IMG/VR virus record: IMGVR_UViG_3300023170_004399
Coordinates: 128,001-192,000 of that record
Direction: 5' to 3' (one strand)
Length of the DNA stretch: 64,000 nucleotides
Source: a virus
Lineage: Duplodnaviria; Caudoviricetes
This document shows, piece by piece, positions 24,976-63,721 of this stretch. The first letter of the stretch is position 1; every line of letters begins with the position of its first letter. The notes under the pieces were generated by a model that was not told the DNA's origin, made no database searches, and saw nothing but the letters and a program-made list of their open reading frames with translations. The translations under genes were made by a program, and so were the position numbers.

Positions 24976-25009
24976 TCTAGTTATTAGATATATTGTTCAA
25001 CAATGTAAG

Positions 25010-25325: not shown

Positions 25326-25352
25326 TATTTTAAAACTTTTGTATAATTAAAA

Positions 25353-25385
25353 GAGGAAGCAGTTTACATACAGCTTCCTCGTTTT
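25353..25385 (+). terminator. Hairpin, weak terminator or 5' stabilising stem
   Basis: gaggaagc-N12-gcttcctc then gtttt; directly follows ATAATTA at 25343-25349. Confidence 0.5.
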
Positions 25386-25429
25386 ATAATGTTTATTATC
25401 TTTATATTATTAAGTTATGGGAGTTAGTT

Positions 25430-36821: not shown

Positions 36822-36889
36822 AAAATGCCCTCTATAATTAAGTAGAGGGTTTTTTAAAATGCCCTCTATAATTAAGTAGAGGGTTTTTT
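36822..36889 (+). repeat. Exact 2 x 34-bp tandem repeat; each unit is a hairpin plus T6
   Basis: aaaatgccctctataattaagtagagggtttttt at 36822-36855 and 36856-36889. Confidence 0.95.
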
Positions 36890-38092
36890 ATGAGAGATAT
36901 AGCAAAAGCAGATATAGTATATGAAGAATTGAATAGAGTTGAAGAGTTTATTGAATCTTTAACAGAGAACAAGTATTATGAGAAAACATATAAAAGAGAA
37001 ATAAGTTTTTTACACAATTATAGATTTGCTCTAACACAAGGACAAGATTATTATGATGAGCTAAATTTTAAACTTGATATGTTAGCTATTAACGCAGAAG
37101 AAATGGAAAATATTAGACAAACAGTTAATCAGAAAAAACCTGTACCCAAAAATAGTATTGCTGATGAAATTGAAGACTATGCTTCTATAGCTGCTTTTTT
37201 AGGCCATACTAAATTAACTCATTTTTTAGAAGAATCAGCTTATCACACCAGGTCAGGAAAATGGAAAACACTTTTACGTGAAGAACAAGAAGTGTTAGAT
37301 GACTTTAAAACGTTTTTATCAAATTGCAAACAATACAATCAGATTGAATTTACAAAAGAAATTATAGAAGAAATAAAGTATTTATGCGCAGCTCATTACT
37401 TAAAATCTAAAATTAATAAGTCTTACCTAGGAAATGACATACGGCAAAAATACGAATCACTTTATACTTTTATTGATGGTTTAGAAAAACATTTAGATTG
37501 CAAACGTGAAAAATGTTATTTAGGAAAAAAGTGTAATCTATTGAATAGCTATGATGATATAGTAAATTATTTAAATAAAGATTTTAACATATGTAAAGTA
37601 GAACAAAATATCGTCAGAGTTTTAGATTTATTAGATGATTTTGATATTTCACCACCAAAAAATACCGACCGTAATTTAGCTAAATTAATTAAAGGGATTA
37701 AAGGTGCAAACAACAAATTAAATAAATCTGAAGACATGTATTACGTTGCGGAAATAAATTATTTAAAAAATGAGGTTAAGGAAATAACCAGCATTGTCGA
37801 CAAATATAAAAAAATGGATTATTTGCAAATTGGTGAAATAGTAGTCATGACTAAAGACTTTGAAATGAGTAATGGAGTTTTAGAAAATCTAGGTATGAAA
37901 GACAAAACTGTAACTGGTATCATAACTGGTGAAGTGACTATAAATTTTGGTTGCAACAATTATATTAGATTAATGAATAGAACAAAAAATGTCATGGATT
38001 ACTCGAGTAGATTTATTGGAGTTAGTGTTTTAATAAATGATGATGAATATTTTATGCCTGTTAAATATATTTCAGGAGGTATTGATGACTAG
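36890..38092 (+). CDS. Hypothetical protein (400 aa)
   Basis: AGAGGG SD 6 nt before the ATG; helical N-terminal part; possible SH3-like C-terminus. Confidence 0.7.
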   Translation: MRDIAKADIVYEELNRVEEFIESLTENKYYEKTYKREISFLHNYRFALTQGQDYYDELNFKLDMLAINAEEMENIRQTVNQKKPVPKNSIADEIEDYASIAAFLGHTKLTHFLEESAYHTRSGKWKTLLREEQEVLDDFKTFLSNCKQYNQIEFTKEIIEEIKYLCAAHYLKSKINKSYLGNDIRQKYESLYTFIDGLEKHLDCKREKCYLGKKCNLLNSYDDIVNYLNKDFNICKVEQNIVRVLDLLDDFDISPPKNTDRNLAKLIKGIKGANNKLNKSEDMYYVAEINYLKNEVKEITSIVDKYKKMDYLQIGEIVVMTKDFEMSNGVLENLGMKDKTVTGIITGEVTINFGCNNYIRLMNRTKNVMDYSSRFIGVSVLINDDEYFMPVKYISGGIDD

Positions 38093-40487: not shown

Positions 40488-40539
40488 CTAATTTTTTAAT
40501 TTGGTATAATTATAGGTAATATTAATCGGAGACCTATAT

Positions 40540-43500
40540 ATGCCGCCGCCACCGTCTGGAAATAATGATCAGGCACAATTAGATATACAGAATGCCATAT
40601 TAGCAGCTCTTCAAGCTCAAAACGAAGAGTTAAGGAAGATTGGTTCCGCTTTAGGACAAAATGCACAAACTTCTCAAAATATGGCAAATGCTGCTAATGC
40701 CGCCGCCAATGCAATGAATAATGCTGCTGGCGGTACATCTAATTTAACGCAAGCAGCAAATGATGCAGCCGATGCTGCTAATGGTGCAAAAATAAATTTC
40801 AATGATTTATCGCTTGAATTACAGGAAGCTGCCGATGAAGTTGAAAACTTAGAAAGCAAAACAAATAAATATTTGAAAACAGCTGCTGGCATGAATATGA
40901 TATACTCAATATTTAAAACTGCTGGCGGCATGATCGACGCAACTATATATGGTATTACTGCTAGTATAACCGGTTTTTTCGAGATTTTAAAAACTGGAAT
41001 GGGTGTAATAGATGGTGTAACACAGACATTTATTAACGCGGCAGCAGAATTAGATCAACTAGGTCAACAAATATTTGAGGCAAATGAAAACATCAGAGAA
41101 AGCTTTGGAGATCTTTCAAAGAACGAAGGTCTTGAAGTAAAAGAAATGTTTCATGAATTGAGAGAAAGTCAAGAAGTTTTAGGCAAATCTGGCAGATCTT
41201 TAATAAATACTATTGGTGAAATGCCAGCCCAGCTTGAATATGTAAATTCCTTAGCACAAGGATTAGGATCTTCTTTTCATAGTTTAACAGATTCTTTTAA
41301 AGGCAATGTTACTAGTATGATGGTGCTAGATAAAGGTGCCGGTTTAACTGCAGAGAATTTTAAATTTATGGCTCTATCAGCTGCAAAATCTGGCAAAGAC
41401 ATGTCAGAGTCTTTACAAGATGTAACTATATCATTAGCTGCTATGCAAAAAGATATGGGGATAAGTGCTAAGGTTGTTAAGGAAGCTTTAAGCGGGATGA
41501 TGAATGACACTAAAAACTTTGGTGATTTATCTGAGAAAGAATTAGTAGCAGTAGCTGGTTATACAACAAAGCTAGGTGCTGAAATGTCTGATCTGCAAGG
41601 TATAATGGCTCAGTTTGATACATTTGACTCTGCAGCAGAATCTGCGGGTAAATTATCTGAAGCATTTGGTATGAATGTTGATGTTATGAAAATGATGATG
41701 ACAGACAACCCTGCAGAAAGAATAGATGAATTACGTAGATCATTTGAAGCGGCGGGAAATTCTGTTGCAGACCTGGATAGACGTCAGTTAGATTATCTGG
41801 CAAATTCTACTGGTCAGAATATCGACAACATAAAGAAAATATTTAGTACTCCTTTAGATGAAATGAGTTTTGATGACTTCCAAAATAAATTAGAAGAAGC
41901 TACAAAGCCTATGACTATGGAAGAAGCCACAAATGAAATGGCTAAAAACATTAAAAAATTAACAAATGTATTTTTAACATTACAGAAAGGTTTAGGTGCA
42001 ATTGGTCAGTTTTTTCATGGTTTTACAACTATGATGGGATACATGCCGGAAGTAAGAAAAGTTATAAATTCTGTAAGAATGTTTTACAGAGTTTTCTTGA
42101 AGTCAGGTGCGAAATTTGCCGGATTAATAAATAAGGTTATTGCTCCGGGTGGTGCTTTATTTACAATGAGAAATTTGTTTGAAAGTATATTTGATGTCGG
42201 CCGTGCGCAAAAGTTTATGGATACTTTTCATGATTTATTTGAAGGCTTTTTCAATAATGTCATGATCGATCCTAGTTTAGCAATGAAAAGATTATTTCTT
42301 GGAATAATAGATGCTTTTAAAGAATTTACAGATGGTCAATTAAGTGCTAGCGGCGAGTTATTTAGCTATATGGAAAATATGCTTATAGGATTATTCCAGA
42401 TGATTGCTGATAATGCTGACAGTGTAATTGAAGAAGCTGCTACTAGTTTAAGTGGTATTCTAGAAGAAATATTTGACGGACTTAGTAATTCAGCAGCTAC
42501 TCATAATTCACTATTAGGTTCTATAGGTGCTGCTTTAACTAATGTTATTATGGCTTTGTATGAACACGTGTTCCCTGTAATGTTAGATTTATTTACTAGG
42601 ATATTTGATGCATTGTGGCCAATTTTACAACCATATCTTATGACAATGTTTGGAATATTTGTATTAAAGGTAATTGGAATAGTTTTAACAACAGCAATAA
42701 TGACTGGCGCTCTAAGCACAATGGTAAGTTTCTTTAAAGATTTAACTGGGGGCTTGTTTAAAAAATTAGGTCTTGGCGGCGGTGGTGATGGCGATGCCCC
42801 AGCAGAATCTAAAGGAATTTTAGAAAGTATTAAAGATGCCTTTACTAGTGTGCCTGATCTTTTAGAAACCCTGGTAGACGTAGGTGTATATATAAGGTCA
42901 ATGACTGCGAGAGATTGGATGAATTTAGGCGTAGGTATTATTGCATTAGCTGGATTATTTACTATAATAGGAACTGTGTTTTTAGCTGCTTTGGGTGTTG
43001 TAACTTTCATGGCTAAAAAAATGGTTGATTTTGGTGCAGCAATGAAAACAATGGCTTTACTTACAGCTGTTATGTTATTTAGCATACCAATGATTTTAGC
43101 ATCAGCTGCCCTAGGTGGTGTTATAATGGCAGCCGCAAATGCTACTGGTGGTATAGGAGCAGGAGTTATATTAGCCGCAATTGCTATTGGTGTACTAGTA
43201 ATAGCTGGTTTTTTAACCGGTTCTGCGTTAGCATTATTAGGCGCAATGGCAACTGTAGTAGCAGCTGCTGGTACTATAGACAAAGAAAAGGCAAAAGGTA
43301 TTTTTGATTTATTAAGCAGTTTTTTAAAGGGTATTGTTAGTCCATTTGCTACTATTATAGAAGCTTCTTCCGGAATTACTGGGTTACTTGCTGGATTGTT
43401 TGGTGTAAGCCCGATACAACAAGCAACCGGTTTTATACAAGATATTGTACAATTAATTATTGATAAAATTATTCCACAAATATTTACGCCATTGGCAAAA

Positions 43501-53465: not shown

Positions 53466-53494
53466 TTATACAACTCCAATGGTGTAAATATAAT
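53466..53494 (+). promoter_or_regulatory. Candidate promoter TTATAC-N17-TATAAT
   Basis: In the gap upstream of the SSB gene. Confidence 0.55.
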
Positions 53495-53559
53495 AATAAA
53501 GTTATCGTGTTGATAACGTTACAAAACATTTAAAAATTTACACATTTGGAGGTGTATTT

Positions 53560-60542: not shown

Positions 60543-60555
60543 TTTAATATATTAT

Positions 60556-60583
60556 TTAGACATTTTACTTATTTGGGTACAAT
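60556..60583 (+). promoter_or_regulatory. Candidate promoter TTAGAC-N16-TACAAT with the -10 inside a terminator stem
   Basis: -10 at 60578-60583 lies in the left arm of the 60574-60596 hairpin. Confidence 0.5.
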
Positions 60584-60601
60584 TAATTTGTACCCATTTT
60601 T
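60574..60601 (+). terminator. Intrinsic terminator after RNR
   Basis: tgggtacaa-ttaat-ttgtaccca followed by T5. Confidence 0.8.
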
Positions 60602-60622
60602 AATTTAACAAAAGGACAAAAT

Positions 60623-61228
60623 ATGCATTGGACAACAGAACATGGTTCGAATATTCTCGAATTACAACTAAGACACAACCCTGTTATTATTCGCGTTAAT
60701 GAATTTAATGAACAATCAGCATCTGATTTTTCTAAGCAAATTGGGTTAGCACACAACACTGGGCAAGACGTTATTCCTATTGTTATTGACAGTTACGGCG
60801 GTCAAGTTTATAGTTTGATGTCAATGATTGCTTCAATAAAAGCTTCAACTTTGCCAATAGCTACTATAGTTGAAGGAAAAGCAATGAGCTGTGGTGTGTT
60901 ATTAGCTTCTTGCGGCACAAAAGGTTATAGATATGTAACTGAAGATGCAACATTAATGATACATGATGTTTCTTCTATGCAGTATGGTAAAAATGCAGAG
61001 TTACAAGCAAGTGCTGATGAAACAAAAAGATTAAACGAAAAGATTTACAAAATTTTAGATACAAATTGCGGAAAAGATCCCGGTTATTTCAACAAAGAAG
61101 TATTTAATAGAGGACGGGCAGATTGGTTTGTCACCCCGGAAGAAGCAATTGCAATAGGTTTGACAGATCACATAAAAATGCCGAAGTTCCACATAATTAG
61201 TAAGTGTGAAATTAATTTTGTTGGTTAG
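60623..61228 (+). CDS. clpP: ClpP-like protease subunit
   Basis: IDSYGG, KAMSCG (Ser), MIHD (His), DWFVTPEEAIAIGLTD. Confidence 0.88.
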   Translation: MHWTTEHGSNILELQLRHNPVIIRVNEFNEQSASDFSKQIGLAHNTGQDVIPIVIDSYGGQVYSLMSMIASIKASTLPIATIVEGKAMSCGVLLASCGTKGYRYVTEDATLMIHDVSSMQYGKNAELQASADETKRLNEKIYKILDTNCGKDPGYFNKEVFNRGRADWFVTPEEAIAIGLTDHIKMPKFHIISKCEINFVG

Positions 61229-61237
61229 GAGACATTT

Positions 61238-61705
61238 ATGAAAGAGATGCTAATGGATTGGATTGGAATGCACAAATGTGTACAGATGTGGTTTCAATCA
61301 GCTCACCATTGTACTAAAGGCACAGGGTTTGCTGGAGATCATGATTTATTATATGGAGACATATATCAAAAGTTTTTTGCTGACTTTGACGTCATTGTAG
61401 AAAAATCTATTGGCATATGTGATGATGAATCTGTATCATGTCCATTGCATCTCTGTAAATGTTGTATGAAACACGTAAATAACTATCCATCACCTTGTAA
61501 TAAAGATGCTACTTATATAGCTGCACATGCACTTGCGATTATGAAAGATTATATAAAATATTTAACTGCAACTTATAATACGCTTAAGGCAAGTGGTGAT
61601 TTAACTCTTGGCACTGACGATTTAATTATGTCTTTAGCCAATGAGTATGAATCATATGTATACAAGTTACAGCAAAGAGTTAAATCTACTGTTGGAGTAA
61701 AATGA
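61238..61705 (+). CDS. Dps/ferritin-like protein, Cys-rich
   Basis: AHHCTKGTGFAGDHDLLYGDIY...DVIVEK follows the Dps H..HW...G..F...H....Y......D...E pattern. Confidence 0.7.
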   Translation: MKEMLMDWIGMHKCVQMWFQSAHHCTKGTGFAGDHDLLYGDIYQKFFADFDVIVEKSIGICDDESVSCPLHLCKCCMKHVNNYPSPCNKDATYIAAHALAIMKDYIKYLTATYNTLKASGDLTLGTDDLIMSLANEYESYVYKLQQRVKSTVGVK

Positions 61706-62589
61706 TGGATAAAGTTTTTTACAATGAGGCGTCCGCTTCAAAATTAGGGTGGAAACCACAATGGTTTATACCGGGTCATGACCAGTTTGATAACAAATTA
61801 ATTAATGCTATTAGAGCATATCAAAGAGCTCATGGCATGACGGCCGATGGAATGTGTGGCCCCGGGACTTATAGAAGAATACAAGCAGATCAAGACATGT
61901 TGCGTGATCATGTTTTTCAAAAAGTAAAAAGTGGTTCAAAGTTTATATATTATATGGGACAACCGTTTCCTATAGAATGGGATAAAGTTAGCACATATAA
62001 TGATGATAATTGTTTAAAATTAACTGGTGCTATGAGAAGGCAGTCTAAGAAAAGAAATATTAAATATTTTGTAAATCATTGGGATGTTTGTTTAAATAGT
62101 GAAAGTTGTGTAAGAGTTTTAAACAAGCGCAATATATCAGTACATTTCTGTATTGACAATGATGGTTGTATTCATCAGTTAGCAGATTGTAATGATATAT
62201 GTTTTCATGCTGGTTCAAGTACTTCAAATGCAGCATCTATTGGTGTTGAAATAAGCAACGCATATTATCCTAAATATCAAGGATGGTATGAGAAAAATGG
62301 TTTTGGAAAAAGACCTATAATTGACAATGCTACAGTACATGGGAAAGGCATGAAGCCCTTTACAGGTTTTTATGATGTGCAACTGGAAGCTGCAAAAGCA
62401 CTGTGGTCAGCTATACATAATGCTGTGGGCATACCTTTAGTTGCACCAAATAGCAAAGACACTGTCGACAAAGATTTACAAAAAGGTAAGTTTAAAGGCT
62501 TTTGTTCTCACTATCACATAACTTCGCGAAAGATTGACTGTGCCGGTCTCGATATTTGGTCAATGATAGAAGATATTAAAAATAAATAA
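61702..62589 (+). CDS. N-acetylmuramoyl-L-alanine amidase with peptidoglycan-binding domain (endolysin-like)
   Basis: AIRAYQRAHGMTADGMCGPGT (PG-binding); VNHWD, SVHFCID, FHAG, SIGVEI, SHYHI...KIDC (Amidase_2). Confidence 0.88.
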   Translation: MMDKVFYNEASASKLGWKPQWFIPGHDQFDNKLINAIRAYQRAHGMTADGMCGPGTYRRIQADQDMLRDHVFQKVKSGSKFIYYMGQPFPIEWDKVSTYNDDNCLKLTGAMRRQSKKRNIKYFVNHWDVCLNSESCVRVLNKRNISVHFCIDNDGCIHQLADCNDICFHAGSSTSNAASIGVEISNAYYPKYQGWYEKNGFGKRPIIDNATVHGKGMKPFTGFYDVQLEAAKALWSAIHNAVGIPLVAPNSKDTVDKDLQKGKFKGFCSHYHITSRKIDCAGLDIWSMIEDIKNK

Positions 62590-62596
62590 CGTACAT

Positions 62597-62648
62597 TGTT
62601 TCTAAATTGGTATAATCTTATTACTATAAGATTACTAATTTGGAGATA
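62597..62648 (+). promoter_or_regulatory. Extended -10 promoter (TGGTATAAT) inside a long hairpin that covers the SD of the glutamine synthetase gene
   Basis: TG 62608-62609 and TATAAT 62611-62616 in the left arm; GGAG 62642-62645 in the right arm. Confidence 0.6.
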
Positions 62649-62650
62649 TA

Positions 62651-63721
62651 ATGAAAACTATTTTAGAATATGTTTGGCTAGATGGATATAAAACACAGAA
62701 TCTAAGATCAAAAATAAAGGTTGTCAATACTGCTGATATAGATTTTAGTTTTGGTGATAACATGCCTGAAATATCAAAAATACCTGATTGGAATTTTGAT
62801 GGCTCTTCTACAAAACAAGCAGAGGGGGATAACTCTGAATGTTTGTTGAAACCTGTAAGAGTTTATAGGTGGCCATATTCAATAAAAAACCACTTTGTTG
62901 TACTTTGCGAAGTTTACAATGCAAATGGTATACCACACGTTACTAATAAAAGACATTTGTTAGAAAAATTACATAAAAAATATTTGCATGATCATTTCTG
63001 GTTAGGTTTTGAGCAAGAATATTTTATTACAAAGAATAGAAGACCGCTTGGCTTTCCGGAAATGGGAACTCCTGGACCTCAAGGCCAATATTATTGTGGT
63101 GTAGGAACAAATCAAGCTGTTGGTCGTAAATTAACTCTCCAACACATGTCAGCTTGTATTGACATGGGGATGGATATTACTGGCACAAATGCGGAAGTTG
63201 CTATTGGTCAATGGGAATATCAAATATTTGGTAAGTCACCTTTGAAAGCGGCTGATGATGTAATAATTTCTAGGTATGTTTTAAAACTATTAGCAGAAGA
63301 TTATGGATATGATATTAACTTTGATCCAAAGCCAATCGACGGTGACTGGAATGGGAGTGGTATGCATACTAATTTTTCAAACGAGTACATGCGAGAAACT
63401 GGCGGAGAAACTTATCTTAAAGATTTAATGAGTATTTTTAAAGAAAAGCATCATGCTAATATTAAAGATTATGGCGAAGGCAACAGTATGAGATTGACTG
63501 GTAGGCATGAAACACAGCATATTGATGTTTTCACTTACGGTATTGCTGATAGAGGCGCATCAATTAGGGTTTCGAATGATTTTGTGCGCAATGGTTATAA
63601 AGGTTACTTAGAAGACAGAAGACCCGCCAGTAATGCCAATCCTTATGTTGTATCTATTGCTATAATAGAAAACAGCTGTAGTGGTACAATTGAATGCTCG
63701 GGAAGAAACAATGAAAAATAA
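62651..63721 (+). CDS. glnII: Glutamine synthetase type II
   Basis: LEYVWLDG, WNFDGSST, FEQEY, GQYYCGVG, NAEV...QWEYQ, DWNGSGMHTNFS, RLTGRHET, RGASIR, YLEDRRP. Confidence 0.93.
   Translation: MKTILEYVWLDGYKTQNLRSKIKVVNTADIDFSFGDNMPEISKIPDWNFDGSSTKQAEGDNSECLLKPVRVYRWPYSIKNHFVVLCEVYNANGIPHVTNKRHLLEKLHKKYLHDHFWLGFEQEYFITKNRRPLGFPEMGTPGPQGQYYCGVGTNQAVGRKLTLQHMSACIDMGMDITGTNAEVAIGQWEYQIFGKSPLKAADDVIISRYVLKLLAEDYGYDINFDPKPIDGDWNGSGMHTNFSNEYMRETGGETYLKDLMSIFKEKHHANIKDYGEGNSMRLTGRHETQHIDVFTYGIADRGASIRVSNDFVRNGYKGYLEDRRPASNANPYVVSIAIIENSCSGTIECSGRNNEK

Follow-up and report, generated by a model that had tools for sequence, protein, structure and literature searches.

A hairpin pairing the Shine-Dalgarno sequence of a phage glutamine synthetase gene, with a promoter-like site in its 5' arm

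How is a metabolic gene translated when it appears to lie inside a longer phage transcription unit and its Shine-Dalgarno sequence (SD) is entirely paired in the RNA? This question is raised by the glutamine synthetase (GS) gene at the end of the window, by which the whole 64,000-nucleotide stretch of phage DNA analysed here is meant. The window is an A+T-rich phage contig (about 33% G+C) with all of its genes on the + strand, and no close relative of this phage was found among the INPHARED phages. Around GS the gene order is DnaB-like helicase, class I/II ribonucleotide reductase (RNR), a terminator at 60574-60596, ClpP, a 155-aa protein, an Amidase_2/PG_binding_1 protein, a spacer of 61 nt, GS, and a Dam-type methyltransferase (Table 1). 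The GS protein has the features of type II enzymes: both Pfam domains are present, and the nearest solved structures are plant and other GSII decamers (PDB 7v4h, 2d3a and 4is4, with E values of ~1e-92 to 1e-90 over residues 2-341). The gene is under purifying selection, with a protein identity of 96% against a nucleotide identity of 92.5%, and with 17% of third codon positions changed.

Transcription of the clpP unit may read through into GS. The promoter-like site in front of clpP (60555-60583) is of the two-box type, as is the site proposed below for GS, and a search of the + strand from 60597 to 62650, that is, from the clpP unit up to GS, found no terminator-like site.

Table 1. Positions of the features discussed, in window coordinates
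Feature	Positions	Strand	Basis and remarks
Promoter-like site TTTAGA-N17-TACAAT of the clpP unit, likely read-through source	60555-60596	+	Promoter scan; -10 within the RNR terminator hairpin
Amidase_2 + PG_binding_1 gene	61702-62589	+	Pfam matches, ORF, gene order shared with relatives; final gene of the clpP-hypothetical-amidase unit
-35-like box aCGTAC	62589-62594	+	Within conserved CGTACATT (62590-62597); 16 nt before the -10 (17 nt in variant C)
Hairpin 5' arm	62597-62621	+	RNAfold; anti-SD UUUCU at 62599-62603; covers promoter spacer and -10
Extended -10-like element TGGTATAAT	62608-62616	+	Hexamer TATAAT at 62611-62616; TG in variant A only
Hairpin loop UACU	62622-62625	+	Contains predicted transcription start, A62623 +/- 2
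Hairpin 3' arm	62626-62648	+	RNAfold; includes SD GGAG at 62642-62645
Glutamine synthetase (GS), type II, 356 aa	62651-63721	+	Pfam Gln-synt_N and Gln-synt_C

The hairpin over the GS ribosome-binding site

RNAfold of 62597-62648 yields a single hairpin of 23 bp with a minimum free energy (MFE) of -20.7 kcal/mol, in which 62597-62612 pairs with 62633-62648 and 62615-62621 with 62626-62632, leaving a 2-nt bulge and a 4-nt loop. Dinucleotide shuffles of the same sequence fold to -5.5 +/- 2.0 kcal/mol (z = -7.7), none of 200 reaching the native MFE, and the hairpin ranks fifth in stability among about 12,800 sliding 60-nt windows of the 64 kb, despite being composed almost purely of A and U. The GGAG of the SD is paired throughout, as it is in hairpins of the T4 type, and the GS start codon follows two nucleotides beyond the 3' arm. 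The structure described in a first-pass annotation of this DNA, made from the sequence by a model, is thus confirmed in its extent and in the pairing of the whole GGAG; the register of 9 and 14 pairs given there amounts to the same fold with the UAUA bulge slipped. Because the outer stem contains four G.U pairs, the opposite strand folds to just -9.2 kcal/mol, and this asymmetry points to a role at the RNA level, on the coding strand, and not to a DNA palindrome.

The possibility that this hairpin is an intrinsic terminator was rejected, as it contains only 2-3 G-C pairs, its tail is UAUAAUGAAAAC, and the terminator scan reports nothing at this position. The phage's own intrinsic terminators (for example, at 25007, 35600, 36826, 54366 and 60574) are likewise intergenic hairpins of the + strand, but they have short, G+C-rich stems followed by a T-run, whereas the GS hairpin is long, A+U-rich, furnished with G.U pairs, and followed by UAUAAUG. 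Repeats of either arm were sought across the window and none was found elsewhere. An Rfam search of the GS leader, including the glutamine riboswitch, matched no family, the best scores being 10-22 bits against gathering scores of 45-100.

Translational coupling to the amidase gene was also rejected as a way of opening the hairpin. The amidase stop codon (TAA) occupies 62587-62589, the hairpin begins 8 nt downstream, and the 5' arm lies wholly in the untranslated spacer, so that ribosomes translating the amidase gene cannot melt it.

The energetic consequences of including or omitting the 5' arm were computed for RNAs of both kinds. Unpairing the region from the SD to the AUG costs 11.6 kcal/mol in RNA that contains the upstream sequence versus 4.3 kcal/mol in RNA that starts at 62621-62625 for the spacer found in the window (variant A, see below), and 15.5 versus 4.8 kcal/mol for variant B. 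The overall range is 9-16 kcal/mol in read-through RNA, depending on the sequence context, versus 4-5 kcal/mol in promoter-started RNA. Shuffles confined to the 45 nt that the short RNA lacks reached the observed masking in 0/100 cases, with z = 3.8 (A) and 7.2 (B). The difference between long and short leaders that the first-pass annotation anticipated is, therefore, present in the computed energies of variants A and B, but masking is not significant in variant C (z = 0.1 and 1.4).

Promoter-like boxes and the spacers of relatives

The DNA of the 5' arm resembles a promoter. An extended -10 element had been placed in this arm by the first-pass annotation, with a predicted start in the loop, and both are recovered: TGGTATAAT is present, and a start at the usual -10 to +1 distance, 7 nt after the hexamer, would fall on A62623, inside the loop. 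The -35-like box matches TTGTAC at 4/6 positions. Promoter activity of the nested TATAAT site is a prediction, as is its start position, and the former gains from a comparison of variants.

The amidase-GS junction was retrieved from twelve further contigs, found via the GS protein cluster, and three spacer types were distinguished. Type A is identical to the window (eight loci), type B (L085) accompanies a GS that is 96% identical, and type C (L086, L087, L088 and L090) accompanies a GS that is 87% identical. Invariant across all three are CGTACATT, right after the amidase stop, and T(A/G)GTATAATCT, while the 13-14 nt between these boxes diverge, as does the sequence downstream, indels included. 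Boxes that remain fixed while the intervening nucleotides vary are the pattern expected of a real two-box promoter. The arrangement is aCGTAC-N16-TATAAT in the GS spacer of the window and gCGTAC-N17 in type C. Of the promoter as initially annotated, the boxes are, therefore, conserved in A, B and C, but the TG of the extended -10 is missing from B and C.

These boxes can be compared with promoter-like sequences at other genes. TTG(A/T)AC-N17-TAnnnT stands upstream of the single-stranded DNA-binding protein (SSB) gene in 47/68 distinct leaders of related phages, and the boxes of the GS spacer appear to be a weak version of this sigma70-like class. TATAAT is enriched about 6-fold in the non-coding 3.7% of the window, which holds 13 of its 53 copies. 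The core TATAATTA is likewise mostly non-coding (7/10 copies), mainly before structural genes, and the GS -10 differs from this core at its last two bases, positions 7-8 after the -10 (CT). The nested site, consisting of TATAATCT and a -35-like box, thus matches neither the T4 late element TATAAATA nor the TATAATTA core, and it does not have the features of a later promoter class. A recurrent GTACATT box was sought elsewhere in the window and none was found. An NtcA-type site was rejected by eye, the spacing being GTA-N9-TAC and not N8.

The hairpin is less widely conserved than the boxes. Its strong form is restricted to variants with a GS of at least 96% identity. Type B, the one close variant that shares the long hairpin, is separated from type A by four transitions (62600 U>C, 62609 G>A, 62635 C>U and 62632 U>C), three of which retain pairing, and the MFE is unchanged. 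These substitutions were rejected as covariation support: no pair is altered on both sides, 15-19% of random four-transition sets keep the MFE, and the retention of pairing equals the chance expectation for transitions at those positions, so that covariation between A and B is not significant. Type C forms a different, shorter hairpin of 13 interrupted base pairs (-8.7 and -9.1 kcal/mol, z = -1.5 and -2.3, not significant), which still links the -10 region to the SD/AUG region. RNAalifold found no structure common to A, B and C, and the covariation in relatives for which the first-pass annotation had hoped did not materialize.

In relatives whose GS is 57-59% identical, the gene directly adjoins its upstream neighbor or overlaps with it, its SD is open, and these phages translate GS through direct coupling. 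Because they possess GS without the spacer, the promoter or the hairpin, the hairpin device appears to be young and dispensable, a recent addition in one narrow lineage. Related marine phages (L114 and L117-L119, GS 57-59% identical) keep a block of ClpP-amidase-(SNase)-(4HBT thioesterase)-GS-Dam-MT-A70-ThyX-Fpg, and GSII seems to be a stable member of the nucleotide/DNA-modification region in these phages. A further 80 viral loci with a GS of 48-56% identity (L001-L080) were considered as a comparison set and set aside, as they belong to other viruses and are uninformative on the hairpin. Their GSII leaders are A-rich and devoid of an SD, consistent with a virus group whose host or translation style is unlike that of the window phage.

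Searches of viral and metagenome contigs with the amidase recovered only relatives of 48-58% identity, all of them without GS. In eleven of these (L082, L083 and L097-L105, amidase 55-58% identical), the amidase gene is followed, at the position that the GS spacer takes in the window, by an invariant AATATAATTAT and then by a stem-loop of 3-5 bp, two pairs of which are changed on both sides. Downstream of the stem-loop is a leader without an SD, and then a protein of ~800 aa that begins with MSAVRVVESSGSLG. The AATATAATTAT pattern supports the notion that such motifs are real transcription starts in this phage group.

Insulation from read-through and its alternatives

The arrangement at GS has well-characterized counterparts. 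In the T4 genes e, soc, 49 and I-TevI, and also in I-TevII, I-TevIII, segB and Aeh1 mobE, long transcripts have their SD or AUG locked in a structure, the 5' strand of which carries a late promoter, and for gene e, translation differs ~100-fold between long and short transcripts (PMC3014915, PMC2988022). Like e, soc, 49 and I-TevI, GS has its SD paired in a local hairpin with a promoter-like site, here a predicted one, in the DNA of the 5' strand, and to judge from the sequence, it may be part of a longer transcription unit from which no terminator cuts it off. The nested promoter of T4 is a late one (TATAAATA, recognized with gp55) and its effect is temporal, whereas the GS site consists of a -35-like box and TATAAT and is akin to the phage's sigma70-type promoters, including that of clpP. 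Since the GS promoter is sigma70-like and of the same class as the clpP promoter, early/late timing in the style of T4 is not supported, and insulation from read-through, as opposed to a change of temporal class, is the function that the sequence suggests. The T4-like architecture claimed by the first-pass annotation accordingly stands as regards the masked SD, the promoter-like 5' arm and the lack of an intervening terminator, but departs from T4 in that the nested promoter is not of a late class. The targets also differ: in T4 they are lysis, capsid and homing-endonuclease genes, and here the target is a metabolic enzyme, recognized as such from its sequence.

Under the favored reading, the 61-nt spacer would carry a sigma70-like promoter, aCGTAC-N16-TGGTATAAT, of which the inter-box spacer and the -10 double as the 5' arm of the 23-bp RNA hairpin, while the 3' arm holds the GS SD. 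RNA from the clpP-amidase unit would contain both arms, fold on synthesis and block the 30S subunit from the GS start. The nested promoter would start its RNA in the loop, near A62623; without the 5' arm, such RNA would have an open ribosome site. How much GS is made would then be set by the gene's own promoter and shielded from transcription arriving from upstream. The probability that a promoter nested in a hairpin masking the ribosome-binding site insulates GS translation from read-through is put at about one half. What the sequence itself shows is a strand-specific hairpin that pairs the SD, two conserved promoter-like boxes and no intervening terminator, whereas promoter activity, the start position, read-through and the effect on GS translation are inferred.

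If the switch works as proposed, one short promoter would set GS output independently of a strong upstream unit, providing a compact case of the insulation of a metabolic gene inside a polycistronic phage block, and the comparison of A, B and C would show the device emerging within ~10% sequence divergence. A mechanism known so far from late, lysis and homing-endonuclease genes of T4 would, in addition, be extended to a metabolic gene and to a promoter outside the late class. For T4 this mechanism is already textbook, and the gain from the GS case is incremental.

The other explanations accept the hairpin and dispute the promoter, the level of action, or function altogether. The hairpin could be a plain translational damper, with TATAAT inactive or transcription starting upstream of the 5' arm, such that all GS mRNA carries the hairpin and GS is kept low relative to the amidase unit. 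This is an unlikely explanation, but one with several points in its favor, as the hairpin and the paired SD are certain but the promoter is a prediction, with a weak -35-like box and a non-conserved TG, and GS ranks only fifth among the 52 genes of the window for occlusion of the ribosome-binding site, occluded starts thus not being unique in this genome. Nevertheless, a damper leaves open why both boxes are conserved although the sequence between them varies, and with the whole SD buried in a structure of about -20 kcal/mol, there would be hardly any translation of a gene that is under clear purifying selection and that relatives express from an open SD. RNase III sites, such as those between the T7 early genes and in the lambda N leader, offer a second precedent: cut within the stem, the transcript would yield distinct amidase and GS messages, the former ending in a protective 3' stem, and the GS ribosome site would be freed. 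The GS hairpin resembles these sites in that it forms a long RNA helix with imperfections between two genes of a polycistronic phage message, and cleavage there could unmask a ribosome site. It is specific to the RNA strand, lacks terminator features, and with 23 pairs and a 2-nt bulge exceeds the approximately two turns of double-stranded RNA (20 bp or more) typical of RNase III substrates. Unlike the T7 and lambda N sites, however, the GS helix is not kept in the next variant, where the 13 interrupted base pairs of type C are too short as a substrate, and it has promoter boxes embedded in it, the conservation of which processing would not explain. No sequence mark of cleavage is seen. Processing by RNase III is accordingly rated somewhat below the damper.

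Action at the DNA level is the least probable of the alternatives. A perfect 9-bp inverted repeat, TAATCTTAT-N4-ATAAGATTA, spans the -10 and +1 and could bind a dimeric repressor, for which I-TevI, which represses its own promoter in T4, provides a precedent (PMC2988022). The 14 outer pairs, however, need G.U and hence exist in the + strand RNA only, the symmetry of the DNA is broken in type B, and the palindrome of type C is another and shorter one, so that no operator sequence is conserved. It is also improbable, though slightly less so, that the hairpin has no function and that the inverted repeat is the recent by-product of an indel of ~10 nt that moved the SD. The restriction of the strong hairpin to variants with at least 96% GS identity, the indel around TTACTAAT and the SD by which A and C differ, and the non-significant covariation are all consistent with such an origin. 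Against it, chance is very unlikely to produce, within a 61-nt spacer, a helix of z = -7.7 in which precisely the SD is paired, and type B has retained full stability through four substitutions.

Nested promoters and hairpins elsewhere in the window

Insulation by a nested promoter would be more plausible if hairpin-nested promoters recurred in this genome, and they seem, from their sequences, to be a habit of it. The clearest parallel is the gp32-like SSB gene (53560; PHROG 1192), in the leader of which a 20-nt stretch situated exactly between the TTATAC and TATAAT of the gene's own promoter (TTATAC-N17-TATAAT) pairs with the GGAGG. This leader (53466-53559) forms a long-range stem of 20 bp at -25.6 kcal/mol, equal on both strands, with a masking z of 9.0. 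The long stem is not conserved in SSB relatives and is specific to the lineage of the window phage. The tape-measure gene (40540) presents a weaker case. It has a TTGGTATAAT identical to that at GS, and a 13-bp hairpin (40495-40545) joins its -10 and AUG regions, with -11.8 kcal/mol (z = -2.3) and a masking z of 2.0. In addition, three terminators of the window have a -10-like TA(T/C)AATTA in their stem or loop.

A broader proposal is conceivable, though doubtful: that this phage group may use the variable spacer of ordinary sigma70-type (early/middle) promoters as an evolvable arm against the ribosome site, making GS and the gp32-like SSB deaf to read-through. If true, the T4 late-gene paradigm would extend to a general self-insulating promoter that arises de novo within a few percent of divergence.

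Several further elements were observed alongside these cases. The SSB relatives share a 5' hairpin with the appearance of covariation, followed by repeated AACATTT up to the SD, a layout that resembles a gp32-type autoregulatory operator. In the RNR terminator (60555-60596), stem and loop contain TACAATTA, and TTTAGA precedes it by 17 nt; this resembles a promoter embedded in a terminator, and transcripts from such a promoter would lack the 5' arm and so escape termination. At 36826-36885 there is a tandem duplicate of a 34-nt unit, in which a terminator hairpin (GCCCTC...GAGGGC and a T-run) has the TATAATTA core in its loop, and the second copy ends just before the ATG at 36890. At 25342-25395, TATAATTA is directly followed by a terminator-like hairpin (GAGGAAGC...GCTTCCTC and a T-run) and then by a second TATAAT, an element that may specify a very short transcript or an attenuator.
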